From NCBI RefSeq assembly GCF_000341395.1, contig NC_020304.1, forward strand, positions 600,001 to 632,000: a DNA stretch of 32,000 nt. The letters are read 5' to 3'. Shown here piece by piece: positions 4,168 to 32,000 of this stretch. Position 1 is the stretch's first letter. Every line of letters begins with the position of its first letter. The notes under the pieces were generated by a model. The model had not been told where the DNA came from and did no database searches. It was given only the letters and a program-made list of their open reading frames with translations. Both the position numbers and the translations under genes were made by a program. The stretch comes from Desulfocapsa sulfexigens DSM 10523. Lineage in GTDB: Bacteria > Desulfobacterota > Desulfobulbia > Desulfobulbales > Desulfocapsaceae.

Positions 4168-4213
4168 TAGAGTTGGCTGAAGACTGAATCCCCTTCTGCC
4201 TTCTATCTGAGAA

Positions 4214-6313
4214 ATGCATTCAAACACCCTCTACATAGCATCCCTTGAACCCGAGGCAGGAAAACTTGTCGTTACCATGGGGATCATGGAATTTCTCAGC
4301 CGCTCCGTAGGAAATGTCGCTTTTTTTCGGCCGGTTATTGATACCGAGAGAGATATCGACCCCGACATAAACCTGATCCGTGGCCGTTACTGCCCCAATA
4401 TGAGCTATGAAGAAAGCTACGGTTTTCAGGCTTCAGAAGTAAAAAGCTTTGTGGCAGAGGGGCGGATAAAGTTTTTTCTGGAGGAACTGCTCAACAAGCT
4501 TACCCGCCTCAAAGAACAGTACGACTTTGTCCTCTGCCAGGGCCTGAATGCTACATCCTTCCTCTCCGCTTTTGATCTCGACATCAACATGGAGATAGCC
4601 AAAAATCTCGGATGCCCTTTTATTGGTGTTATCAATGGCATGAACCAAACTTCCCGCGACATCGCCAAAGAAATACAGATTACAGAAGCTGCCATCACTG
4701 AATCCGGTTGCACCCATTTTGCAACCTTTGTGAATCGTATGGCCAAAGATACTCTGGGAGTACTTGAAGTAGAACTCGATGACCCCGACGAAGCATCGGG
4801 TGCTCCGGTCTTTCTTCTGCCTGAAAATGAAGAACTGGACAAACCCTCACTCGCTGGTATTTGCGACGCTCTTGGCTGTGCCAACATCCTCGATCGTAGT
4901 GATGGTATGGATCGTATCGTCAAGCAGTTCAAAATCGCTGCCATGACCATGGAGCACTTCCTTTCCCATGTGGAAGACGGTGATCTGATCATTGTCCCCG
5001 GTGACCGTGATGATATTGTTCTTGCCTCAATCTCCACCCTCTTTTCAGCGAATTATCCTAATGTAGCTGGCATTCTCCTTACCGGTGGATTTCTTCCAGG
5101 AGCAAACACCATGCGTCTGATCACTGGCCGGGAGAGAATTGTTCCATTGCTCAGTGTCACCACCGACACCTACAGCACGACCAGGAATGTTGCGGCGGTA
5201 CCTGCCCTCATTAATCCAGGCGATGAACGTAAAATCGCCCTCGCCCTTGGCCTCTTTGAGACCCATGTTAACAGCGAGCGACTGCGAAAGATGACAGAAC
5301 TCAGCACCACCCCGGAGACAGTCACCCCTATCATGTTTGAATATGGGCTTTTCGAACGGGCACGTTCTGCCAAGAAGCATATTGTCCTTCCGGAAGCCAG
5401 TGATGAACGGATCTTACGGGCAACAGAAATATTACTCCGCCGCAATGTGGTGGATATCACCCTGCTGGGAAAACCTGAAGAAATAACAGCTCATGCTGCG
5501 TCACTGGGACTCGACATCAAAAAGGCCAGGCTCATCGACCCTTCAACTTCGGAGCTGACCGAAGAATTTATCCAAACCTTTTACAAGCTGCGGAAACACA
5601 AAAATATGACCCCGGATGGCGCCCGTGATGCCATGAGCAACCTCTCCTACTTTGGAACCATGATGGTCTACGAGGGAATGGCAGATGGAATGGTCTCAGG
5701 TGCCATACACACCACCGCTGACACCATTCGTCCTGCCCTGCAGATTATCAAGACCATCCCTGGAATATCCGTGGTTTCCTCAGTCTTTCTCATGTGCCTT
5801 GACACCAGAGTACTTGTCTATGGTGACTGTGCCGTAAATCCCGATCCCAATGCCGCACAACTTGCAGAGATAGCAATATCTTCCGCTGACACTGCGACAA
5901 CCTTTGGTATTGAGCCACGGCTTGCCATGCTCTCCTATTCAACTGGAGCCTCCGGCAAAGGTGTCGATGTTGAAAAAGTACGCACTGCCACAACAATGGC
6001 CAGGGAAAAAAGACCAGATCTTCTCATTGAAGGCCCTATTCAGTATGATGCCGCCATTGATCTGGCTGTAGCTAAGACGAAAATGCCAGACAGCCTGGTT
6101 GCAGGCCGTGCAACGGTTTTCATTTTCCCAGACCTCAACACCGGCAACAACACCTACAAGGCCGTACAACGATCTTCGGGTGCCGTAGCAATCGGGCCTG
6201 TCCTCCAGGGGTTAAAGAAACCGGTCAATGACCTCAGTCGAGGCTGTCTCGTCGCCGACATCGTGAACACCGTGGCCATTACTGCCATTCAGGCGCAATC
6301 CATCCAGACCTGA
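4214..6313 (+). CDS. pta: Phosphate acetyltransferase, long (about 700 aa) form with N-terminal regulatory region
   Basis: 699 aa. C-terminal PTA_PTB domain (IVLPEASDERIL, GMVSGA, DCAVNPDP, FPDLNTGN) is preceded by a DRTGG-like region (LIIVPGDRDDI). Confidence 0.9.
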   Translation: MHSNTLYIASLEPEAGKLVVTMGIMEFLSRSVGNVAFFRPVIDTERDIDPDINLIRGRYCPNMSYEESYGFQASEVKSFVAEGRIKFFLEELLNKLTRLKEQYDFVLCQGLNATSFLSAFDLDINMEIAKNLGCPFIGVINGMNQTSRDIAKEIQITEAAITESGCTHFATFVNRMAKDTLGVLEVELDDPDEASGAPVFLLPENEELDKPSLAGICDALGCANILDRSDGMDRIVKQFKIAAMTMEHFLSHVEDGDLIIVPGDRDDIVLASISTLFSANYPNVAGILLTGGFLPGANTMRLITGRERIVPLLSVTTDTYSTTRNVAAVPALINPGDERKIALALGLFETHVNSERLRKMTELSTTPETVTPIMFEYGLFERARSAKKHIVLPEASDERILRATEILLRRNVVDITLLGKPEEITAHAASLGLDIKKARLIDPSTSELTEEFIQTFYKLRKHKNMTPDGARDAMSNLSYFGTMMVYEGMADGMVSGAIHTTADTIRPALQIIKTIPGISVVSSVFLMCLDTRVLVYGDCAVNPDPNAAQLAEIAISSADTATTFGIEPRLAMLSYSTGASGKGVDVEKVRTATTMAREKRPDLLIEGPIQYDAAIDLAVAKTKMPDSLVAGRATVFIFPDLNTGNNTYKAVQRSSGAVAIGPVLQGLKKPVNDLSRGCLVADIVNTVAITAIQAQSIQT

Positions 6314-6388
6314 ATTTTTCATCAAGGAAAAATAAATATCCTCGCTTATGAAGACTGAAGAGTATCTTTTCATCTCCAGGGAAGCATC

Positions 6389-6817
6389 ATGACACTAATT
6401 AAATGGAGAGACTCCTATTCTGTCGGAGTCGAGAAATTTGATAAGCAGCACAAAGTGCTTATTGAACTACTCAACGATATCTTCATCATCGTACGGGAAA
6501 ATCAAAGCGTGGACCACCTTGGCCTTGTTCTGTATAAACTTGTTCAATACACCCAGGAACATTTCAGAGACGAAGAAGAAGCGATGGCGGCGGCGAACTT
6601 CCCCAAACTGGATGAACATAAGGCAAAACACGGCAAACTACTGAACGAAGTAACAACTTACCAAAAACGCCTGGAAGCTAATGACGAAAAGCTGATACCG
6701 GAATTTTATCAGTTTGTCAGGGAATGGCTGCTCGAACATATACTTGAGGATGACATGAAATATAAACTGTTCCTTGGAACAGGCAGCACCACTCCTTCAG
6801 GAAACACCTCGGGATAA
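6389..6817 (+). CDS. Hemerythrin-like metal-binding protein (bacteriohemerythrin)
   Basis: IKWRDSYSVGV..FDKQHK..., HFRDEE, H(K)AKH and EHILEDD iron-ligand pattern; 142 aa. Confidence 0.85.
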   Translation: MTLIKWRDSYSVGVEKFDKQHKVLIELLNDIFIIVRENQSVDHLGLVLYKLVQYTQEHFRDEEEAMAAANFPKLDEHKAKHGKLLNEVTTYQKRLEANDEKLIPEFYQFVREWLLEHILEDDMKYKLFLGTGSTTPSGNTSG

Positions 6818-10693: not shown

Positions 10694-11747
10694 TCAGTAC
10701 AGTCGGCGAAAGGCCGATGCCTTGATCACAGCCACCACTTCGGCGCCCTTACGGAGATCAAGCTCACGGATCGCCTCCGGCACAACCTGGGAGACAAGAC
10801 TTCTCCCGTTGCAGGCCAGCTCTACCCCGATCCGGTTGCCTTCGCCAAAGACATCGGTCACCCGACAGGCAAGGAGATTACGGGCGGAGGTGGCCACAGG
10901 ATGCTGTTTGAAGAGGGTAATGTCCTTGGCTCCAAGCTCAAAAACGTTCTCCCCCTCCCCTCCCGGTTCGGTGAGAATCAATTCGGTCCCCCCATCGGTA
11001 GGCCCAGAGGTCATCATGCGGCTGCGGAGGCGGCAGGTGAAAAAGGTTGGCATAGCCGCGGTTGCCGGCGACCAGTCCCCGCCGTGCCAGATCTTCCGCC
11101 GCCAGACGCTCCTGGAGCCGCCCCTGGCCAAAAACCAGGACTTCATCTGTCATCAGCCGGATCTCCTGCATTGAATGACTGATAAAGAGCAGAGGAATCT
11201 CGAACTGGTCAAGGACCGTCCGCAGATAGGGAATAATCTGAAACTTCAACTCCTGGTCCAGGCCGGTCAGGGGTTCATCCATCAGAATAAGACGAGGGCA
11301 GGCCAGGACAGTGCGGCCAAGGGCCACCCGCTGCCGCTCTCCACCGGAAAGACTGTTCACCCCCCGCTCCAGGAGATGATCGAGGCCCAATACCTTGATG
11401 ATCGCCTCCGGCGTACCACGACGCTGATCCGGCGGAGTCCGTTTCCAGCCGTAAAAGAGATTGCGACGGACATTCATGTGGGGAAAGAGGCGGGCGTGCT
11501 GAAAGACCACCCCGATCCGGCGCTCCTGCGGGGGAAGGCTGATCTTTTTTTCACAGTCATAGAGGATCTGACCGTCCAGCACAATACGGCCCCGGTCAGG
11601 TTTGAGCAGTCCGGCCAGAATATGCATAAAGGTTGACTTACCACTGCCGGAGGGCCCAAATATCCCACATTTTTTCTCGGCCAGGGAAAAGGCCACCTGC
11701 AGGGAAAAATTACCGACCCTTTTTGTTATATCCACTTCAAAGAGCAT
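10694..11747 (-). pseudogene. modC: Molybdate ABC transporter ATP-binding protein ModC, interrupted by a 1-nt frameshift (or sequencing error)
   Basis: The 269-aa ORF (10938-11747) carries Walker A GPSGSGKST, LSGGERQRV and Walker B LILMDEP. The TOBE/Mop-like C-terminus (...SARNLLACRVTDV...VIKASAF) continues in another frame (10694-11146). Removing one G from the G6 run (C6 on + strand, 10988-10993) joins them into about 350 aa. Confidence 0.85.
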
Positions 11748-11750
11748 CAG

Positions 11751-12428
11751 CTACCTCCTGCGGAAGGAACGTGCCGAGGCTTCGCTGACCAGGAGGACCA
11801 GGAAGGAAAGGCCGATGGAGACCAGACAGAGCGACAGGGCCATGGAATCTCCCCCAGGGGTGTTGGTATACTCGTAGATGGCCAACGGAATGGTCTGGGT
11901 AACTCCGGGAATATTGCCGGCCAGAATGATGGTGGCCCCAAACTCTCCAAGGCTTCTGGCAAACATCAGGGTCATGCCCGCCAGAACGGCCCGGCCGGAG
12001 AGGGGCAGGATGACCGAATAAAGGCTGTCCCACCACCTGGCCCCCAGGGTTCGGGCCGCCTGGAGGTACTGCTCATCAATCCCTTCCATGCCGATCCTGA
12101 TGGAACGGACCAGAAGTGGAAAGCCGACCACGGCCGAGGCGATCACCGCCCCTTTCAGGGTAAAAATGATCCGGAGATCGAAAAACCGGAGCACCGGCCC
12201 AAGAGAGCCGGACTGGCCGAAGAGAAGGAGGAGAAGATACCCGACCACCACCGGAGGGAGTACCAGCGGCAAATTCACCACCCCCTCCAGAGCCGCCCGG
12301 CCCGGGATCCTGGTAAAGACCAGAAGATAGGCCGCAGCAAAACCGAGAGGAAGCGAGAGCAGGGTCGCGGCAGTGGCCACCTTGAGAGATAGGATAATGG
12401 CCTGGATATCCTGGGGAGTAAGAGACAT
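11751..12428 (-). CDS. modB: Molybdate ABC transporter permease
   Basis: 225-aa polytopic protein with an EAA-like loop (AARTLGARWWDSLYSVILPL), sitting between modA and modC. AGGAGG lies before the modC start. Confidence 0.9.
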   Translation of the reverse strand: MSLTPQDIQAIILSLKVATAATLLSLPLGFAAAYLLVFTRIPGRAALEGVVNLPLVLPPVVVGYLLLLLFGQSGSLGPVLRFFDLRIIFTLKGAVIASAVVGFPLLVRSIRIGMEGIDEQYLQAARTLGARWWDSLYSVILPLSGRAVLAGMTLMFARSLGEFGATIILAGNIPGVTQTIPLAIYEYTNTPGGDSMALSLCLVSIGLSFLVLLVSEASARSFRRR

Positions 12429-12467: not shown

Positions 12468-13235
12468 TCAGTGGGAGGAAGCAACTGTGAAGCCGTATTT
12501 CTCCAGAATAGTAACGGCCGCCGGCGTACCCAGATAGGCGAGAAAGGCCTGGGCATCCGGATTCTTCATTCCGGCAAGTGTCAGCCCCAATGGATAGGCA
12601 ATGGGGTCATGGAGCTCTGCGGGTACGGTCAAAAGGATAACAGCCCGGCGGGCGAGCAGGGCATCGGTCTTATAAATAAAGGCCCCGTCCACCTCGGCGC
12701 GATCCGCGTAGAGCAGGGCCTGGCGGACATCCTTGGCCATAACCAGTTTATGTTCTTTTTCCAGTTGCTCGTAGATCCCTGCCACCTGCATGGCCTGGGC
12801 CGCATACTGTCCGGCAGGCACACTCTTCGGACTCCCTATGGCTATACGGGAAAGAGTGGCGACTCCCCCCAAATCGTGAACCAGAGTATCCTCGGCTCCG
12901 ACAAAAACCAGAGAATTCCTGGCAAAAATCCGAACCGTTTCCGGAACAACCTGTTTTTCTTTGAGAAGGTAATCCATCCATTTTTTATTGGCCGAGACAT
13001 AAAGGTCGGCAGGAGCCCCTTGGACGATCTGTTTGGCCAGAGAGCCGGATGAAGCGAAATTAGGAAGAATGGCAATCCCTGGATGTTCCTTGATAAATTC
13101 TCCGTTCAGTTCCTTGAAGGCATCAGTCATACTGGCCGCCACCGAAAGCCGGATCTCCCCCCCGGCCAGGGCCTGGACAGCTGTGGCGCAAAGCGCCAGA
13201 AAAACGAATACGAGTAGTCTTGCTTGCCTTTTCAT
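12468..13235 (-). CDS. modA: Molybdate ABC transporter periplasmic substrate-binding protein
   Basis: Signal peptide (LALCATAVQALA), then VAASMTDAF, ASSGSLAKQI and FIYKTDA motifs typical of ModA. ATG at 13235 lies 7 nt after AGGAGA (a GTG at 13238 is also possible). Confidence 0.9.
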   Translation of the reverse strand: MKRQARLLVFVFLALCATAVQALAGGEIRLSVAASMTDAFKELNGEFIKEHPGIAILPNFASSGSLAKQIVQGAPADLYVSANKKWMDYLLKEKQVVPETVRIFARNSLVFVGAEDTLVHDLGGVATLSRIAIGSPKSVPAGQYAAQAMQVAGIYEQLEKEHKLVMAKDVRQALLYADRAEVDGAFIYKTDALLARRAVILLTVPAELHDPIAYPLGLTLAGMKNPDAQAFLAYLGTPAAVTILEKYGFTVASSH

Positions 13236-13343
13236 CACGATTTCTCCTTATTGCTCTTATTTATCCTGTAGACCAACGGACAGAGTTTGGGCCTTTACCG
13301 GGGTCACGTCTCCCTGTACAACTAGCCGCCTTACTTGTTCTTT

Positions 13344-13359
13344 TGCACAAAATATGCCA
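13344..13359 (-). promoter_or_regulatory. Sigma54-like -24/-12 element upstream of modA
   Basis: Minus strand reads TGGCATATTTTGTGCA: GG and GC are separated by exactly 10 nt, about 105 nt upstream of the modA start. Single occurrence with no conservation test possible. Confidence 0.3.
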
Positions 13360-14117: not shown

Positions 14118-14543
14118 TCAGGGGACAATAGCCGGAAGCGTGACAATAAATTCACGAATTTCATCTCGGACCCGGCTGTAATGCTTGAGGGCCTCATCTT
14201 CGCTTGCGGCATTTTCAGCTAATTTCGGAGGGTCGTCAAAGCCGTGATGGATTACTCTCACAGGGCCGGGAAAAAAAGGACAGTTTTCATCAGCGTGACC
14301 GCAGACGGTGATTACCAGATCAAACGCATTTTCGGGCAGCTCGCTGACCAGCTTTGAACGGTGACCGGAAATATCCACCCCGGCTTCGGCCATTGACTTA
14401 ACCGCCAGTGGGTTGAGACCATGGGTCTCGATACCGGCAGAAAAAGCCTCGATGGTGTTGCCAAGGAGCCTGCGGGCCCAACCTTCCGCCATCTGACTGC
14501 GACAGGAATTGCCTGTGCAGAGGAAAAGGACCTTTTTTTTCAC
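14118..14543 (-). CDS. arsC: Arsenate reductase, LMW-PTP / thioredoxin-coupled type
   Basis: P-loop LCTGNSCRSQMAEGW plus the distal cysteine pair in VCGHADENCP (three-Cys pattern as in the pI258-type enzyme). GTG start at 14543. Confidence 0.9.
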   Translation of the reverse strand: MKKKVLFLCTGNSCRSQMAEGWARRLLGNTIEAFSAGIETHGLNPLAVKSMAEAGVDISGHRSKLVSELPENAFDLVITVCGHADENCPFFPGPVRVIHHGFDDPPKLAENAASEDEALKHYSRVRDEIREFIVTLPAIVP

Positions 14544-14746: not shown

Positions 14747-15834
14747 TCATTCGTCTCTGCTGACATGGCAGACACCGGTCAGAGTTTCCCTGGCATGGGG
14801 AAAGTATTTTTTCTTGAACCAGAAGGCAACGTTGACCAGGGCGATCAGTACCGGAACCTCCACCAGAGGTCCGATAACCGCTGCAAAGGCCTGGCCGGAA
14901 TCGATACCGAATACGGCGATGGCCACGGCGATGGCGAGCTCGAAGTTGTTGGAGGCAGCCGTAAAAGAAAGGGTGGTGGCCTGCTCGTATGTGGCTCCCA
15001 CCTTCATGGACATGAAAAAGGAAACCAGAAACATGACCAGGAAATAGATGGCCAACGGGATCGCAATTCGAACAACGTCAAAGGGCAGCTGAACAATATA
15101 TTCACCCTTCAACGAAAACATGACGACGATGGTGAAAAGGAGAAACATCAGGGTAAGGGGGCTGATCATGGGGATCAGTTTTTCCTGATACCACTCCTCA
15201 CCCTTCAGGCGCAGACCGATGAAACGGGTCAACATCCCGGCGATAAAGGGGATACCAAGGTAAATAAAGACTGACTGGGCGATCTGCCCCATGGAAATAT
15301 CGACCTCCAGCCCTGCAATGCCGAAAATTTTGGGAAGAAAGGTAATGAAGAACCAGGCATAAACCGAAAAAAAAGCACCTGAAAAATGGAGTTGAAGGCG
15401 ACCAGGCCCGCGCAGTATTCCCGATCTCCCTCGGCCAGATCATTCCAGACAATGACCATGGCGATACAGCGGGCCAGGCCGATCAGGATGAGGCCAACCA
15501 TATACTCGTGCTGCCCGGAGAGAAAGCTTATCGCCAGGCCGAACATCAGGACAGGCCCGATAATCCAGTTCTGGATAAGTGAAAGCGTCAGTATCCTGCC
15601 GTTTCTGAATACCTCATGCAGCTGCTCATAGCGCACCTTGGCCAAGGGCGGGTACATCATGAGAATGAGGCCCACGGCGATGGGTATATTGGTAGTCCCC
15701 ACCTGAAAGGCGTTGATAAAATCCTTAATGCCGGGCAGAAAATACCCGCTCCCGACGCCAATCAGCATGGCAAGAAAAATCCAGAGGGTGAGAAATCGAT
15801 CAAGAAAAGAAAGTCTTCTGCCTTCAGCACTCAT
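14747..15834 (-). pseudogene. acr3: ACR3-family arsenite efflux permease, interrupted by a 1-nt frameshift (or sequencing error)
   Basis: The N-terminal part ([20 protein letters not shown]..., from ATG 15834) and the C-terminal part (ORF 14747-15292) are both ACR3-like. The frames join if the T8 run (A8 on + strand, 15367-15374) is T9, giving ...[34 protein letters not shown]... and about 362 aa. Confidence 0.85.
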
Positions 15835-15848
15835 GGGGAGTCCTCCGA

Positions 15849-16208
15849 TCAACCTGGTTCCGTGACGCAGGTGTCTGCTTTTTTTGTTTTCAGAAACGCT
15901 CCCAGGCGATGACGGTCTTCGCGGGCTTGCTCCAAGTGGAGGCAATATTTCTGGAGGAAGTCAAAGAGAGCTTCACGAATCCCGTTATCAGCACTGATGC
16001 GATAGTACATCCACACACCGCGGCGCTTCCCTTCAACCAGGTCGGTGTTGCGTAGTATCGCCAGGTGCCTTGACACCGTTGATTGCGGCATATCCAGAGC
16101 AGCCTCAAGATCGCATACGCACAGTTCACCGTTTTTTAACAGGAGAAACAGGATCCTCAGTCTGGTCTCATCGCCGACCGTCTTAAAAATTTGTACTGTT
16201 TTTTTCAT
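15849..16208 (-). CDS. arsR: ArsR/SmtB-family metalloregulator
   Basis: From M54 of the track ORF: [34 protein letters not shown]..., with the ELCVCDL As(III)-binding motif and wHTH; 119 aa. SD GGAGG for acr3 lies just after its stop. Confidence 0.85.
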
Positions 16209-16214
16209 AAATAC

Positions 16215-16240
16215 AATATATCCGGATATGCGGATATATT
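16215..16240. promoter_or_regulatory. Candidate ArsR operator/promoter: perfect inverted repeat AATATATCCG-N6-CGGATATATT
   Basis: Read directly; it also contains the nested palindrome ATATCCGGATAT. It starts 7 nt upstream of the arsR ATG and includes a TATATT -10-like hexamer on the minus strand. Confidence 0.45.
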
Positions 16241-16645
16241 GCAAACACTTTTTTTGTCGGCGGTGCATGAATTCTAATCTTTTGACTGATAGATTTTTTC
16301 TGGTGACCACCGAGCTCTGTCTTGTCACGCCAGTAATCGGGATATGAGAAGCAATCAGGCAACCCACTGAGAACAGGACCTTTCCATTATCTGCTTCCCA
16401 GGCGAACCGCTTTTATATGTTGCTGTTTTCCGGGGAGTATTATAGGGTATTTTCATGTAAATCCGGCCGGAATATTGGGAATCATGACCTGTGACGTCCT
16501 CTGCGGTGAATATTGTGGAGTAAAAGGGGTGAGAACGGCCCCTCGCAGGCTCCGCGTCAGGCCGTTTTGAGAGAAAAACAGGTTTCTGGAGACCCGTTTT
16601 CCCGCTGATCCTTTGCCTGACGGCAAGCAAAATCCGGTCATTTAT

Positions 16646-18460: not shown

Positions 18461-18500
18461 AAAAAAAACCTCCAGCTTATCTGAGTAGATACGCTGGAGG
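18461..18500 (-). terminator. Rho-independent terminator of cassette copy A
   Basis: Minus strand reads CCTCCAGC-(16 nt)-GCTGGAGG followed by T8, 44 nt after the 99-aa gene stop. Confidence 0.6.
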
Positions 18501-18543
18501 TTCGCCGTACGGGACTGTATCCCTATGAGTTGTTAACTTCTGT

Positions 18544-18843
18544 TTACTTTGAAACTTTGACTGTTGCGGGTGCCTTATTTACATATTTAAAAAATACCGG
18601 GAAGGCAACAAAGAAAGCCACACAGAGCAGATACTCAATACCTTTGATATGGGTGTAGTAATCAACCAGAGTATGCAGAGGTTTCACCATTCCGATTGCC
18701 ACCATATACTGTCCGGCAAGTTCGCTCACCGACCAGCCAACCGATGAAAGGGCACTGGTAAGGGCTGCACCAACCCAGAGACACATGATGGAACCGGCTG
18801 CGAGAAGTATTCTTGATCCTGTTTTTGATCTATTCTCTTTCAT
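18544..18843 (-). CDS. Uncharacterised 99-aa membrane protein (two hydrophobic segments), cassette copy A
   Basis: Open frame with a basic N-terminus and segments ILLAAGSIMCLWVGAALTSAL and YLLCVAFFVAFPVFF. Residues 6-93 are identical to the paralogue at 28400-28699 despite 15 silent nucleotide differences. Confidence 0.75.
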   Translation of the reverse strand: MKENRSKTGSRILLAAGSIMCLWVGAALTSALSSVGWSVSELAGQYMVAIGMVKPLHTLVDYYTHIKGIEYLLCVAFFVAFPVFFKYVNKAPATVKVSK

Positions 18844-18884
18844 GATATTATCCTTATTTCTCTATTTTAACTTGTGTGTGTTTT

Positions 18885-19079
18885 TCAGCCGATAACTGCA
18901 GTAAGGTATCCCTTGACAACGTTCAAAGGTCCCACGCTTATCATAGCGCTTGCGAGACAGGCAAATCCCCAGATGCCGACAAGGGCTGCCATGGTCATTC
19001 CAGCACCGAGTGCAAATGTAGAAGTTTCGTATCCGGCTTTAACCTGAGTAGTTGTGGTAGCTTGTGTGTTTGTATTCAT
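18885..19079 (-). CDS. Uncharacterised 64-aa single-pass membrane protein with Thr-rich N-terminus, cassette copy A
   Basis: GGAGG-N5-ATG at 19079 (the track's upstream ATG at 19091 overlaps the SD). TM segment FALGAGMTMAALVGIWGFACLASAMI. Paralogue at 28742-28936 shows silent differences in the conserved part. Confidence 0.7.
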   Translation of the reverse strand: MNTNTQATTTTQVKAGYETSTFALGAGMTMAALVGIWGFACLASAMISVGPLNVVKGYLTAVIG

Positions 19080-19136
19080 GGTACCCTCCATATAGAATTG
19101 ATTTGACTTACTTTTTCTTTTCTTTACCCTCTATAT

Positions 19137-19152
19137 AGCAGCTATCATGCCA
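19137..19152 (-). promoter_or_regulatory. Sigma54 -24/-12 promoter of cassette copy A
   Basis: Minus strand reads TGGCATGATAGCTGCT (GG-N10-GC), about 45 nt upstream of the first start codon. The same element is at the same offset in copy B. Confidence 0.6.
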
Positions 19153-19242
19153 GTTTCTGTCCTCTCTGTTTCATCTTTGCAATAAAGACGATAATACATT
19201 GATTCAACATGACATTTACTGGGATAATCACCAAAACTCCCC

Positions 19243-19273
19243 TGCGACACTTATGCGCCCTGGCAGTGTGGCA
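19243..19273. promoter_or_regulatory. Candidate enhancer-binding-protein site (UAS): TGCGACACT-N13-AGTGTGGCA
   Basis: Inverted repeat matching at 8 of 9 positions, about 100 nt upstream of the sigma54 element. Conserved with identical spacing in copy B (29100-29130). Confidence 0.45.
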
Positions 19274-19685
19274 AAACTCGGAACTGTAGTTTTAGGATGA
19301 GATTGTGTGGTTTGTGTCCTACGAATGTGTTGCAGGTCTTGCGGATAGGTGTCGCATTACGAAACAGGCAAGGAAACTGAGGAGATATTTAAACTGGGGG
19401 AAACTTCATTCTCTGTCAGGAAGTGGCACGATGGTGACAACTCATCCTGGGGCACCAGAATCTGTGGTGAACAGACATCTTAATTTCGGCCATGCGGATT
19501 GATTTTGTTCAGTGTTTACGATAAGCTTTTTTAAACAGAGTTTCCCTACGGAAAATCGGATCGGTGAAAAAAAGTACGGGTTGTATACGATGAAAAAAGT
19601 TGGGTTTTAAACTTTTCTTCACGCTAACCACGCTATGTCCTGACCATCTAAGCTTTTAGGAAGAAAAACCTTGAGGAGTATATAA

Positions 19686-28326: not shown

Positions 28327-28364
28327 AAAAAACCTCCAGGCTAACGATGAGATACCCTGAAGGT
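28327..28364 (-). terminator. Rho-independent terminator of cassette copy B
   Basis: Minus strand reads ACCTTCAGG-(15 nt)-CCTGGAGGT (8 of 9 pairs) followed by T6. Homologous in position and sequence to the copy A terminator. Confidence 0.5.
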
Positions 28365-28399
28365 TCATATGGGGATATTCCCCTATTAATTTTTTCTTT

Positions 28400-28699
28400 C
28401 TATTTTGAAGCTATAGCCTCGGCAGGAGCCTTGTTTACGTATTTAAAAAATACCGGGAAGGCGACAAAGAAGGCCACACAGAGCAGATACTCAATACCTT
28501 TGATATGGGTGTAGTAGTCAACCAGGGTATGCAGAGGTTTTACCATTCCGATCGCCACCATATACTGTCCGGCAAGCTCACTTACTGACCAGCCAACCGA
28601 TGAAAGAGCACTTGTAAGGGCTGCACCAACCCAGAGACACATGATTGAACCGGCTGCGAGAAGTATTCTTGATCCTGTTTTTGATGTATTTTGTTTCAT
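28400..28699 (-). CDS. Uncharacterised 99-aa membrane protein, cassette copy B
   Basis: Paralogue of 18544-18843. It differs only at residues 3 and 5 and in the last 6 residues. Confidence 0.75.
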   Translation of the reverse strand: MKQNTSKTGSRILLAAGSIMCLWVGAALTSALSSVGWSVSELAGQYMVAIGMVKPLHTLVDYYTHIKGIEYLLCVAFFVAFPVFFKYVNKAPAEAIASK

Positions 28700-28741
28700 G
28701 GTCGTATCCTTATCTCTATATTTTAAATTTTTGTTAACTTA

Positions 28742-28936
28742 TCAGCCGATAACTGCGGTCAAATACCCTTTAACAACGTTCGTGGGTCCCATGCTCATCA
28801 TTGCGCTTGCGAGACAGGCAAATCCCCAGATTCCAACAAGAGCTGCCATGGTCATGCCAGCACCAAGTACAAATGTAGAAGTTTCGTATCCAGTGTTAGC
28901 CCGAGTAGTAGTTGTGATTTGAGTGTTTGTAGTCAT
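28742..28936 (-). CDS. Uncharacterised 64-aa single-pass membrane protein, cassette copy B
   Basis: GGAGG-N5-ATG at 28936. Paralogue of 18885-19079, with 10 of 64 residues different, mostly in the N-terminal tail and just after the TM helix. Confidence 0.7.
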   Translation of the reverse strand: MTTNTQITTTTRANTGYETSTFVLGAGMTMAALVGIWGFACLASAMMSMGPTNVVKGYLTAVIG

Positions 28937-28993
28937 GGTGTCCTCCATATAGGTTTGATATAGCTGAATTTTTCTTTTCTTTGCCCTCTATGT

Positions 28994-29009
28994 AGCACCA
29001 ATCATGCCA
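28994..29009 (-). promoter_or_regulatory. Sigma54 -24/-12 promoter of cassette copy B
   Basis: Minus strand reads TGGCATGATTGGTGCT (GG-N10-GC), at the same offset from the start codon as in copy A. Confidence 0.6.
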
Positions 29010-29099
29010 GTTTGACTCCTCCTCGCTCCGCACCAACAACAATAGCGCTATCGCAATGATATTGCGTGCAAATCAACAACAACACCCCCAAAAACCCAT

Positions 29100-29130
29100 T
29101 GCGACACTTCTGTATTCTGGTAGTGTGGCA
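29100..29130. promoter_or_regulatory. Candidate enhancer-binding-protein site (UAS), copy B: TGCGACACT-N13-AGTGTGGCA
   Basis: Half-sites and spacing are identical to copy A, while the 13-nt spacer and flanks differ. Confidence 0.45.
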
Positions 29131-29246
29131 AAGATCAGAACTGTAGTTTAAGAGAGGAATTGTGTGGTCTTACTTCGACGGATGTGTTGCAAGTCTTACG
29201 GATAGGTGTGGTTGGAATGGGACAGGGGATGATTTTTAGTCAGGAA

Positions 29247-30587
29247 TCAGAAAAAGTATCGTGCCCGCAGCTCTAACTTATTGGAATTAACTTTTTCTCC
29301 GTACTCGGTGTGGCTTCCGCCATCAATCATTGAGAAATTAAGACGAAATTCCCAATTAGTGACCCCGGTATAGACAACTTCCGGGGTTATGGAATAGCTT
29401 TGATCTTCCAGATTGATAAGGGCAACTATCCCGGGACTCAAATAAAGAAGGTCAAAGGGTTCCTTCTGGCTGAACTTTGCATACAAATAATGGCGTCCTG
29501 GCTGTGGCCGGCCATATCCCTTCAGGCTCATTTCTCTGGCCCTGTCCAGCAAGTCAGTTCCAGGTTCCAAGCTTTGGGAAAACCCAGCCTCTGCAAGTTG
29601 ATAAAAATCTGCCATCTCCTCCTCACTGTAGCCACCACCGTTATAATAATATTCCACAATAGACGTGACATCGTTTTCTGAGAGATAGCGAATCCCAAGC
29701 AAAGCGGAAAAGGTATCGTTTTCTTCAATGGATGAGGAGTTGTCTTCTTTAAGAATATTTTTTTTAAAACTGGGAATATACGCGGCTTCACCGTGGATCT
29801 CAAAGTGTGGCGCCAGATTGGTGGAGAAATCAAGGCCGATACTCTCGGAGCGGCTATTGCCAGTCAAGACCATCAGATCTATGTCGACATCCCTGTATAA
29901 GAGGTACAATTTCGCTGCCAGGTTGACTTCATCACTTTCGCCAAAATCATCATTGATATCATCCCATACCGGCAGCACGGCAATCGTCAGGGCAGCGGTT
30001 TGCAGAGCAGACTGCTGCCAGCTTTTAATAAAATCGCATTCCAGCGTCACATACCCCTCGAGGGCATCTTCGGGGTTATTGGGATCCTTGCGACGATTAA
30101 CAAAGCCCACCGGATTCCATGCATATCCCTTTCCCCATTTATAGGATTTTTTCCCAAGCGAGAATGTAGCGGAGGGAGTGGGTTGCAGAGACACATAGGC
30201 GGCGTTCACAAGCGTAAGGTCACTCCAGCCAATGGTATCCTGTTGCGCGGCAGCCTTAAGCTGTACATTTAGACTGCTTATACCATATTCATAACTGCCA
30301 TCAAGCTGTATACTGCCATAGAGCGAATCCATAGTGGATATATTGGGATCGGTAAGATTCAGGCGAGTAAAAACAGAGCCCTGGTTGATATCCGCATGCT
30401 CCCCCCTCAGCTCAACATACCCCCCGAGCTGATAGGGCTTCTTCTCAATCTCTTCAAGGTCAAAGGAGAATTCGTCACTACCATTTACAGGAGCAGCAAC
30501 TAACAGCAAACCAGACAGCAATAAAATCTTTGAAAAAAGAGATACAGTTATTCTACGATGAACTGTCCCTTTACTTTCGTAATTCAT
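29247..30587 (-). CDS. Putative outer-membrane beta-barrel protein, 446 aa
   Basis: Signal-like N-terminus (LLLSGLLLVAAPVNG), alternating amphipathic pattern, aromatic-rich C-terminus ending ELRARYFF. Downstream of a LolA-like gene in the same operon, with a 17-nt overlap. Confidence 0.6.
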   Translation of the reverse strand: MNYESKGTVHRRITVSLFSKILLLSGLLLVAAPVNGSDEFSFDLEEIEKKPYQLGGYVELRGEHADINQGSVFTRLNLTDPNISTMDSLYGSIQLDGSYEYGISSLNVQLKAAAQQDTIGWSDLTLVNAAYVSLQPTPSATFSLGKKSYKWGKGYAWNPVGFVNRRKDPNNPEDALEGYVTLECDFIKSWQQSALQTAALTIAVLPVWDDINDDFGESDEVNLAAKLYLLYRDVDIDLMVLTGNSRSESIGLDFSTNLAPHFEIHGEAAYIPSFKKNILKEDNSSSIEENDTFSALLGIRYLSENDVTSIVEYYYNGGGYSEEEMADFYQLAEAGFSQSLEPGTDLLDRAREMSLKGYGRPQPGRHYLYAKFSQKEPFDLLYLSPGIVALINLEDQSYSITPEVVYTGVTNWEFRLNFSMIDGGSHTEYGEKVNSNKLELRARYFF

Positions 30588-31317
30588 TAATCCGAGACAT
30601 ATAATTCAAGGTAAAGACTTCATCGGCAAATTCTTTTTTCTCTACCTTGGCAAAGAGCATCACCGACCGATAGCCCTTATGTAGAGGACTGTCTGTTTCA
30701 AGGAGTGACGGCCGCACCATACCATCACCAAAATCCTGTATCTTTGAATAGTGCAGAGTTTTAATAAGCATTCCGCTCACCGCATAACACTCGATATCCA
30801 AAGGCAGCAAAGACTCCTTATCAACCGTCATCTTTAAATGATCGTAGGCAACGGATGGTGATTTGGCCTTAAGATCCAGCTGATAGGTTTTTTCCTGTTC
30901 ACTGATACCCGTTGCATCATACTCGACGCTGTAATCGAGGCGCAGAATGTCGGAGTTATTAAAAATGCCTCCGATAACCGACTGGAGACTGGTGATACGT
31001 AGAGGTTTTCCGACATTGGGAATATAGAGCCACATATTATCCCCAAGACGCAGAGTAGCCCTTCCCTCTTCGCTGGCGGGTGAGATAAAGAGAGCAACCA
31101 TTTTATCCTGTCCGGTTTTTACGGTATAGAGAACAAATTCCTTTTTTTTCCCATCGGGCTCGACGTTAATCAGTTTCCGATACATTTCGTAGGATTGAGG
31201 CTGCATGTTGGCATCGACCTGACGAAGAATCTCGTTTCCATCGAGGGCAAACGCTGTTCCTGTGTGAAGGAAGACAACAACAACTGAACATATTATTCTT
31301 TGTAATATTCTATGCAT
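30571..31317 (-). CDS. Outer-membrane lipoprotein-sorting (LolA-like) protein
   Basis: Signal peptide, then the pattern ...GNEILRQVD...KMVALFISPASEEGRATLRLGDNMWLYIPNVGKPLRI...FNNSD... typical of LolA-like proteins next to FtsX-type permeases. Confidence 0.7.
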   Translation of the reverse strand: MHRILQRIICSVVVVFLHTGTAFALDGNEILRQVDANMQPQSYEMYRKLINVEPDGKKKEFVLYTVKTGQDKMVALFISPASEEGRATLRLGDNMWLYIPNVGKPLRITSLQSVIGGIFNNSDILRLDYSVEYDATGISEQEKTYQLDLKAKSPSVAYDHLKMTVDKESLLPLDIECYAVSGMLIKTLHYSKIQDFGDGMVRPSLLETDSPLHKGYRSVMLFAKVEKKEFADEVFTLNYMSRINELRK

Positions 31318-31343
31318 AACTTATTTATCCTTTCCTTCAGAAT

Positions 31344-32000
31344 TCAAACATGACGCAGAGCTGTTATCGGATCCATCTTCGCAGCTTTCCAGGCAGGCTG
31401 CAAGCTGGCAAGCACCGAGATAGCAACAACAATAACTGAAACTGTGATCACCTCTGAAGTCCCTATGGTAGGTGATAGAAGCAGACCTTTCTGTCGACCA
31501 AAGTCAAAACTGATCTGAAAGATATTCATGGCATAAATGGACCCCAGACTGATAACAACACCAACAAGCGTCCCGAGCAAGCCCAGCAGAAAACCTTCCA
31601 TGATAAACAGGGAAAGGATTTTATTGGGAGCAGTGCCAATGGCCGCAATGGTTCCGATTTCATTAATACGTTCATATACGGCCATTATCATCACATTCAT
31701 GATACTCACCAGAACAATGGCCACCAGCATTATCTTAATAAACAGTGTCATAAGATCAATCATACGGGCAATATTGAAAAAAGGTGAAAGCTTCTCCCAG
31801 GTATGAACATCAAACACAGGTTGATCCATTTTGTTTTTTATCGACCCGAGCGTATCGTTCAGGCTGGCAAAAACAGCTTCCAGAGACTGAATCGTTCTCA
31901 GGCGAATGGCAATTTCGCTGACCTCTTTATCCTCCATGCGCAGGAGACTTCTGGCATCCTCAATATGGATAACACCATCACGCCCACCTGGCCCGGAAAT
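31344..32000 (-). CDS. ABC transporter permease, FtsX/MacB/LolC-type (C-terminal part; 5' end outside window)
   Basis: The frame is open to the window edge. C-terminal four-helix FtsX module (ERINEIGTIAAIGT..., ...LASLQPAWKAAKMDPITALRHV). Confidence 0.8.
   Translation of the reverse strand: MSGPGGRDGVIHIEDARSLLRMEDKEVSEIAIRLRTIQSLEAVFASLNDTLGSIKNKMDQPVFDVHTWEKLSPFFNIARMIDLMTLFIKIMLVAIVLVSIMNVMIMAVYERINEIGTIAAIGTAPNKILSLFIMEGFLLGLLGTLVGVVISLGSIYAMNIFQISFDFGRQKGLLLSPTIGTSEVITVSVIVVAISVLASLQPAWKAAKMDPITALRHV

Follow-up and report, generated by a model that had tools for sequence, protein, structure and literature searches.

Desulfocapsa sulfexigens DSM 10523 carries a small two-gene unit that encodes a 64-amino-acid (aa) and a 99-aa membrane protein. 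We analyzed this unit in a window of 32,000 nucleotides (nt; contig NC_020304.1, positions 600,001 to 632,000), and all positions below are counted from the first letter of that window. The unit that we call copy A is a compact cassette on the minus strand at 18461–19356 (UWK_00529 region). Read in the direction of its genes it consists of a conserved upstream block, an IHF-like site, a predicted sigma-54 promoter with −24 and −12 elements, the 64-aa open reading frame (ORF), a spacer, the 99-aa ORF and a hairpin followed by eight Ts. A preliminary description of this DNA, made from the letters alone, had placed the palindrome, the promoter, GGAGG-N5-ATG, the two ORFs, a 41-nt gap and the terminator on the minus strand, and we could reproduce all of these positions. 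It had also called the locus a self-contained, enhancer-dependent unit of two genes for membrane mini-proteins, with which the anatomy and the conserved predicted promoter agree.

The 64-aa protein of copy A (UWK_00529) is encoded at 18885–19079, and a GGAGG ribosome-binding site (19089–19085) lies 5 nt before its ATG at 19079. A program-made list of ORFs uses an upstream ATG that lengthens the protein to 68 aa. We prefer the start at 19079 because of the ribosome-binding site and the 64-aa homologues. The 41-nt gap that follows contains the AAGGA site of the 99-aa ORF (18544–18843). The intrinsic terminator (18461–18503) consists of a hairpin (18503–18469) and a run of eight Ts (18468–18461). 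Folding detected this hairpin at −25 kcal/mol (z = −5.3), and none of 200 shuffled sequences was as stable. A simple terminator scan, which picked up no terminator, overlooked it only because the stem contains an internal bulge or loop.

The label “copy A” in the preliminary description implied a further copy, and a second unit is indeed present at 28327–29212. Copy B is 87% identical overall to copy A, and the limits of homology between the two are the start of the upstream block and the terminator. Its parts, on the same strand, are an upstream activator region with the same conserved block (29100–29212, near-palindrome at 29130–29100), a −24/−12 promoter (TGGCATGATTGGTGCT, 28994–29009), the 64-aa gene UWK_00538 (28742–28936), the 99-aa gene (28400–28699), whose HmcD-like product (see below) is 94% identical to that of copy A, and an intrinsic terminator (28327–28366). 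In this terminator the hairpin (28366–28330) folds at −17.7 kcal/mol (z = −2.8) and a run of six Ts (28332–28327) overlaps the stem at its end. Elsewhere in its genome D. sulfexigens has a third paralogue of the 99-aa gene, UWK_02539.

On comparative grounds both ORFs qualify as genuine genes. The coding assignment is supported by the third-position bias between the copies, by the numbers of homologues and by the conserved order of small gene, then big gene. Between copies A and B the small gene differs at 5, 6 and 20 sites in codon positions 1, 2 and 3 (ratio of nonsynonymous to synonymous change, pN/pS, 0.24), and the big gene at 2, 5 and 23 (pN/pS 0.10). More than 555 homologues of the 99-aa protein were found at E ≤ 0.01, mostly 77–94% identical, and 104 of the 64-aa protein, with UWK_00529 100% identical to the copy A product. 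A survey of the homologues for pairing found the small gene before the big gene in 88 of 92 units, and three of the four exceptions sit at contig ends.

By hydropathy, the small protein has a single transmembrane (TM) segment and the big protein has two, as the preliminary description had it. The 64-aa protein has a Thr/Asn-rich N-terminal tail, a TM segment at about residues 22–50 and a conserved C-terminal tail. The 99-aa protein has a basic N-terminus, a first TM segment at about residues 12–34, a conserved loop at 36–68 (KPLHTLVDYYTHIKG), a second TM segment at about 66–89 and a basic C-terminal tail. The charges of its ends (+4 at the N-terminus, +3 at the C-terminus) together with hydropathy suggest a hairpin with both ends in the cytoplasm and the loop facing outward. 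A stretch of about 40 residues in the big protein (GMVKPLHTLVDYYTHIKGIEYLxCVAFFVAFPVFFKYVNK) shows little or no variation across genera. We considered whether the first helix of the 99-aa protein could be a cleavable signal peptide, given an A-L-S motif, and regard this as less likely, because its hydrophobic part extends over about 23 residues and is well conserved. The 64-aa family weakly resembles the N-terminal half of the 99-aa family (hhalign probability 47% over 21 TM residues), and that the small protein is a free-standing copy of this helix is unproven.

The promoters of copy A (TGGCATGATAGCTGCT, 19137–19152, minus strand) and copy B have the GG of the −24 element and the GC of the −12 element at canonical spacing and match TGGCAC-N5-TTGCW. 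Taken alone this is weak evidence, as the window contains three matches to TGGCA-N7-TGCW where 0.69 would be expected. The case for the promoter comes from relatives. We compared 82 loci from other genomes and metagenomes, which contain about 85 units with enough flanking sequence. In about 80 of these units a −24/−12 element lies 64–89 nt upstream of the first small gene, with a mode of about 73. This element and the motifs upstream of it keep their positions in dispersed units as well as in units that are linked to a gene cluster described below. The comparative evidence that the predicted sigma-54 promoter is genuine is strong.

In copy A the upstream activator region (19243–19356, minus strand) comprises CACCTATCCGC at about −199 and TGCAACAC at about −182 from TGGCA, CCACAC repeats and the near-palindrome TGCCACACT-N13-AGTGTCGCA (19273–19243), in which 8 of 9 positions are complementary. 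The block is kept between copies A and B, and the stretch from the block to the promoter has diverged. We counted motifs in 74 units and took expected values from shuffled controls. CACCTATCY occurs at −198 from the promoter in 29 units (0.2 expected), TGCNACAC at −181 in 38 units (0.5 expected), and C[CA]ACAC in 71 units (13.6 expected). GTGTNGCA recurs at about −99 in related units. The conserved block spans −200 to −95, with motif counts far above those of the shuffles. The upstream sites of related units share common ancestry and are hence not independent, although the intervening sequence has diverged. Since Rfam finds no family anywhere in the window, the block is not a known RNA. Between the block and the promoter of copy A lies a possible IHF-like site (AATCAATGTATTA, consensus WATCAANNNNTTR; 19192–19204, minus strand), which was read from the sequence. 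A relaxed pattern of this site, WATCARNNNNTTR, is found at about −51 in 16 of the 74 units (0.4 expected); we call the site tentative because copy B does not have it.

The preliminary description could place neither protein in a family. This still holds for the 64-aa protein, which has no Pfam, NCBIfam or PADLOC match. It does not hold for the 99-aa protein, whose residues 40–99 resemble HmcD. The Pfam copy that we searched matched neither protein, and its silence on the 99-aa protein is explained by the fact that family PF28260 is newer than that copy. In precomputed annotation nearly all homologues of the 99-aa protein are labeled PF28260 “DVU_0533”; these matches are marked “weak” in most loci, and the one in locus L087 is unmarked. 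DVU_0533 is HmcD, the product of hmcD in the hmc operon of D. vulgaris. The NCBIfam model of HmcD (NF045712) matches residues 57–84 of the 99-aa protein (E = 1.3e-4, 21.8 bits).

More can be learned from distant relatives. When we searched 1.84 billion representative proteins with a profile of this family, we obtained only 65 matches, which means that the family of the 99-aa protein is narrow. Among these 65 are single-span proteins of 41–63 aa that align to residues 44–95 or so. P0277, found by the profile at E = 6e-6, scores 46.8 bits on the HmcD model, for which the curated cut-off is 34. Nine of 13 short single-span proteins match the HmcD model at E ≤ 0.01. Finally, a profile-profile comparison (hhalign) of the 99-aa family with the short proteins, a set gathered with the family's own profile, gives a probability of 99.65% (E = 4e-25) over residues 40–99. 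These results show that the 99-aa protein is an added N-terminal helix joined to an HmcD-type domain (residues 40–99) that is homologous to bona fide HmcD.

HmcD is the small hydrophobic subunit of HmcABCDEF, a respiratory complex that sulfate reducers such as Desulfovibrio possess. It is a named subunit whose role has never been defined, so that the match goes only half way toward the confident hit to a family of known role by which the preliminary description would have been refuted. HmcD has been called merely “a hydrophobic peptide” subunit of Hmc (PMC10924467), and NhcD is the fourth subunit of the cytochrome c:quinone oxidoreductase NhcABCD (PMC8076601). Both complexes include such a small hydrophobic fourth subunit, and both subunits are named without a function being given (PMC10924467, PMC8076601). 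Our literature searches returned nothing for PF28260, for UWK locus tags or for Hmc in Desulfocapsa, and a search on HmcB and HmcC in Desulfobulbaceae found no paper with either term.

The likeness to HmcD and NhcD consists of the motif HTLVD(Y/F)Y.(Y/H)IKG.EYLI within residues 40–99, the TM helix with a basic tail that follows it, and, in relatives, the position of the 99-aa gene beside genes for a cytochrome c, an HmcB-like and an HmcC-like protein. The differences are considerable. HmcD is a single-span protein of about 40–60 aa, whereas the protein described here is twice as long, owing to an extra conserved TM helix at its N-terminus. Its gene is always preceded by that of the 64-aa partner, which belongs to no known family, and lies under its own predicted sigma-54 promoter rather than inside an operon. 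The window contains no hmc genes at all, and neither hmcE nor hmcF was seen in the clusters that we examined. The gene is also amplified to 2–9 dispersed or tandem copies. What is new here is thus an HmcD-family protein, as judged from profiles, with an added helix and a 64-aa partner, in a free-standing cassette with a predicted sigma-54 promoter that is amplified within genomes.

The cassette is almost restricted to one bacterial order. A scan of one genome per species gave 158 matches, almost all in Desulfobulbales (Desulfocapsa, Desulfobulbus, Desulfogranum and unnamed Desulfobulbaceae or Desulfocapsaceae); two odd taxonomic assignments sit on tiny contigs. Units are often present in several copies, with at least nine in one Desulfocapsa metagenome-assembled genome (MAG), seven in another and five in a third. 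The neighbors of dispersed copies vary. The number of tandem small genes ahead of the one big gene ranges from one to three, and in some genomes two or three whole units lie in tandem. Examples of this variable architecture are L068:4265–5297, L076:2064–5288, L073, L045 and L046. The variation hints that the small subunits may outnumber the big one, or else that duplication is ongoing.

Copies A and B also differ in how stable their positions are. L009, a contig of a related Desulfocapsa MAG, is collinear with positions 4213–6781 and 28393–32000 of the window. The approximately 21.6 kb between them (6781–28393), which hold copy A, ars genes, ABC-transporter genes and a hybrid kinase, are replaced by just 2.4 kb in L009 (5307–7730), so copy A lies in a strain-variable segment. 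Homology of L009 to copy A starts at 19356. The position of copy B is shared with L009; it lies beside genes for a 446-aa protein of no family, a LolA-like protein and an FtsX-like permease.

The preliminary description stated that no neighboring gene explains the unit. This is true of the window, which contains no sigma-54 activator and no redox complex; the neighbors are genes for a DMT_6 protein, an EAL-HDOD protein and a solute-binding protein with a hybrid kinase, and further an ars operon and guaBA/pta. The implication that context has nothing to say does not hold for other Desulfobulbales, where the pair comes last in an hmcABC-like cluster that includes a sigma-54 activator. A unit of the pair lies directly downstream of genes for a cytochrome c, an HmcB-like protein, an HmcC-like protein and a membrane histidine kinase in 20 of 38 assemblies. 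A reverse search that started from HmcC-like orthologues found the pair downstream in five of five loci. The arrangement common to all five is a gene for an activator (response regulator, PAS, sigma-54 and HTH_8 domains), in some cases an IS1595-like ORF, then genes for an FtsH-like protease, the cytochrome c, the HmcB-like and the HmcC-like protein, often a histidine kinase gene, and finally the small and the big gene. In all five, another sigma-54-type element precedes the operon of FtsH, cytochrome and hmcBC genes. The pair thus follows hmcA'BC-like genes, without hmcE or hmcF, under a separate predicted promoter.

The HmcB-like protein of the cluster is a tail-anchored 4Fe-4S protein that scores 398 bits on the HmcB model, and the HmcC-like protein belongs to the NrfD family and scores 363 bits on the HmcC model. 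The best curated match of the small multiheme cytochrome c is the C-terminal part of HmcA. Hence the cluster has the same trio of cytochrome c, tail-anchored 4Fe-4S protein and NrfD-like protein as Nhc/Hmc-type and HybA/HybB-type modules; the nearest curated models are HmcA (C-terminal domain), HmcB and HmcC, followed by HybA and HybB. It differs from these modules in that its proteins do not reach the equivalog cut-offs (398 against 420 bits for the HmcB-like protein, 363 against 550 for the HmcC-like one) and in that its cytochrome has only 162–176 aa, with five CXXCH motifs in the L069 example. The operon also adds an FtsH paralogue and often the IS1595-like ORF, and it is preceded by the sigma-54-type element. 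It is probable that the FtsH/cytochrome/HmcBC operon and all units of the pair form one sigma-54 regulon.

Some features of the clusters deserve a separate mention. In locus L083 the activator gene is separated from the sigma-54-type element of the operon by a region with a perfect inverted repeat of 20 nt, TTCCCCATGCCACACTTGTG / CACAAGTGTGGCATGGGGAA (4287–4332). This repeat shares a CCACAC/GTGTGG core with the block upstream of the pair and may be a site for an activator or simply the terminator of the gene before it. We looked for a motif common to the promoter of the hmc-like operon and that of the pair; it is convincing in L083 only, and we do not claim it. The IS1595-like ORF (about 304 aa, with Zn_ribbon_IS1595 and with or without DDE_Tnp_IS1595) is found in the clusters of three organisms (L083:4608–5522, L084:4729–5652, L090:1239–2153), each time as the first ORF after the sigma-54-type element and just before the FtsH paralogue. 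It resembles a domesticated transposase more than it does an active insertion.

A comparable neighborhood surrounds P0245, a distant HmcD-like gene for a single-span protein. It is followed immediately by genes for a cytochrome c, an iron-sulfur (FeS) protein and an NrfD-like protein, and a sigma-54 response regulator and a kinase are encoded next to it. In the distant locus, L085 (3649–4623), the HmcD-like gene is preceded by genes for two paralogous proteins of 78–85 aa, each with a signal-peptide-like N-terminus and one TM segment, and the locus includes a stand-alone receiver protein. These two proteins are unrelated to the 64-aa protein; hence different lineages pair HmcD-like proteins with different small membrane partners.

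How can these observations be put together? We somewhat favor the explanation that the pair are inducible accessory membrane subunits of an Hmc/Nhc-type cytochrome c/quinone module, and that the units in our window are dispersed, amplified copies. Among the functions that the preliminary description had listed, a “complex accessory pair” is the one that HmcD homology and synteny favor. Under this explanation, each unit would be a stand-alone sigma-54 operon for two subunits of one small membrane assembly. In the hairpin of the 99-aa protein, the near-invariant loop and the second helix would form the HmcD-type domain facing the periplasm, and the 64-aa protein would be its single-span partner from the same transcript. 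The pair would dock onto the NrfD-like, quinone-interacting subunit of a periplasm-facing module, as HmcD may do in Hmc and NhcD in Nhc, with some presumed effect on the complex. The target module would consist of a multiheme cytochrome c, the HmcB-like FeS protein and the HmcC-like membrane protein. An NtrC-family activator, bound to the conserved upstream block at a distance of about 100–200 bp from the promoter, would switch on transcription when kinases encoded in the hmc-like cluster sense a signal. The ancestral place of the pair would be the 3' end of this cluster. Copies of the complete cassette, with everything between the upstream block and the terminator, would then have reached several unlinked places in Desulfocapsa, presumably raising or diversifying dosage.

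Several observations weigh against this explanation. In the window and in the closest relatives (MAGs CAZIDU, CAZUPS, CAZDJE and DQTH, with up to nine units) no unit adjoins hmc-like genes. A search for HmcC-like proteins gave no D. sulfexigens protein in its 120 best hits, all of which are 70% identical or more, so that an orthologous module or activator could not be confirmed in this organism. Its genome is reported to contain seven NrfD/PsrC genes, and four of these share an operon with genes for a 4Fe-4S protein and a cytochrome c (PMC3739170). From that paper UWK_03020, UWK_03030, UWK_03039, UWK_02207, UWK_02291 and UWK_03284 are candidates for an HmcB/HmcC-like module. The activators near different units belong to at least three or four orthologous groups. 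The 99-aa protein stays below the curated HmcD cut-off (21.8 against 34 bits) and carries the extra helix. A structural subunit in 1:1 stoichiometry has no obvious need for 3–9 copies, each with a strong inducible promoter. Structure prediction does not help much: AlphaFold2 on the 99-aa family, from an alignment of 36 sequences, gives the same helices at low scores (predicted local distance difference test, pLDDT, 55; predicted template modeling score, pTM, 0.26), and a PDB sequence search with the family profile gave no match up to E = 10. Lastly, because HmcD's own role is undefined, the assignment tells us with what the pair associates and not what it does.

The copy number could also be read differently. 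Rather than a fixed structural subunit, the pair may be a dosage-amplified, signal-inducible adaptor for several NrfD-type quinone modules, whose binding would alter the direction or energy coupling of these modules when sulfur metabolism switches, for example between disproportionation and hydrogen-dependent sulfur reduction. Copy number would in that case be highest in Desulfocapsa because these organisms live on such switches. We nevertheless regard this version as unlikely.

Owing to the weak points listed above, three other explanations keep an appreciable probability. It is rather unlikely, for instance, that the pair is an autonomous, abundant channel or scaffold, a homo- or hetero-oligomer that is unrelated to the Hmc-like module, is amplified to supply bulk protein and owes its HmcD similarity to ancestry only. 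Multiple copies, tandem arrays and units with two or three small genes per big gene, both of which resemble gene families of structural proteins, and the unrelated neighbors of dispersed copies would all fit such an assembly. However, synteny with hmcBC-like genes holds in both search directions, and the best-conserved part of the 99-aa protein is exactly the HmcD-like domain. The same domain speaks against a role in signaling, which we consider quite unlikely, since homology to HmcD indicates a subunit of a respiratory complex. According to this idea the pair would be a feedback modulator that is induced by the two-component system, binds the membrane sensor kinase encoded upstream and tunes its output, as MgrB does for PhoQ. 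Indeed, about 17 loci have the pair immediately after a gene for a membrane kinase of 477–675 aa, whose C-terminus is related to AtoS and ZraS, the partners of sigma-54 regulators, and the pair has its own predicted inducible promoter instead of being cotranscribed with hmcABC. Yet L090 lacks a kinase gene between the HmcC-like gene and the pair, the HmcD-like gene of a distant relative lies inside a redox operon, and feedback peptides are rarely amplified to nine copies or conserved at 80–94% across genera.

The cluster also contains a full-length FtsH paralogue, which stands first or second in the sigma-54 operon of five of five clusters. One could thus argue that the pair is a sigma-54-induced effector of membrane stress or quality control that is tied to this protease as substrate, adaptor or inhibitor, or that it protects the membrane as Psp proteins do. 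pspG, which encodes a small membrane stress protein under sigma-54 control, provides a precedent. We consider this improbable, as Pfam and NCBIfam show no similarity to Psp proteins or known FtsH modulators, the distant HmcD-like locus lacks FtsH and yet keeps its cytochrome, FeS and NrfD-like genes, and the invariant outward loop suggests a specific contact on the periplasmic side. MgrB/PhoQ-type regulators and PspG resemble the pair in being tiny membrane proteins under signal-dependent control, with a kinase next door in many loci; there is no sequence similarity, and the resemblance is by analogy only. Finally, two small hydrophobic proteins in a sharp-edged cassette that is copied around the genome might bring to mind a toxin, a bacteriocin, a holin-like pair or a mobile cassette. 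This we think very improbable. Neither protein matches PADLOC, and PHROG matches are at chance level (E = 0.025, for the 64-aa protein, and 0.69). Genes for export, immunity or transposition are not found nearby, no terminal repeats were seen at the cassette ends, and the family is under strong purifying selection (the pN/pS values given above) and kept to one bacterial order with stable synteny.

The cassette may be useful for understanding HmcD itself. Here the purifying selection on the HmcD domain is extreme, as about 40 residues in a row hardly vary between genera. The domain is paired with a previously unrecognized 64-aa partner, it is predicted to be under a dedicated enhancer-dependent switch, and it is amplified up to nine-fold in sulfur-disproportionating Desulfocapsa. 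Together, conservation, partner, switch and amplification offer a genetic and regulatory handle on the role of the small Hmc/Nhc subunit. The probable regulon is carried by an order, Desulfobulbales, that matters in sedimentary sulfur cycling.

Two further observations concern the surroundings of copy A. A third sigma-54-type element, TGGCATATTTTGTGCA (13344–13359, minus strand), lies about 105 nt upstream of a gene for an SBP_bac_11 solute-binding protein (12468–13238, minus strand) and does not have the upstream block of the pair units. The gene heads a three-gene ABC transporter operon with a permease (11751–12428) and an ATPase (10938–11747), and the transporter is possibly one for molybdate or tungstate. 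Nearby, the ars cluster contains genes for ArsR (15849–16367), a low-molecular-weight phosphatase/ArsC-like protein (14118–14543) and an arsenite carrier of the ACR3/SBF family (14747–15945, minus strand). The carrier gene is split into two overlapping ORFs that match profile positions 2–107 and 129–190, which suggests a frameshift, a pseudogene or a sequencing error.

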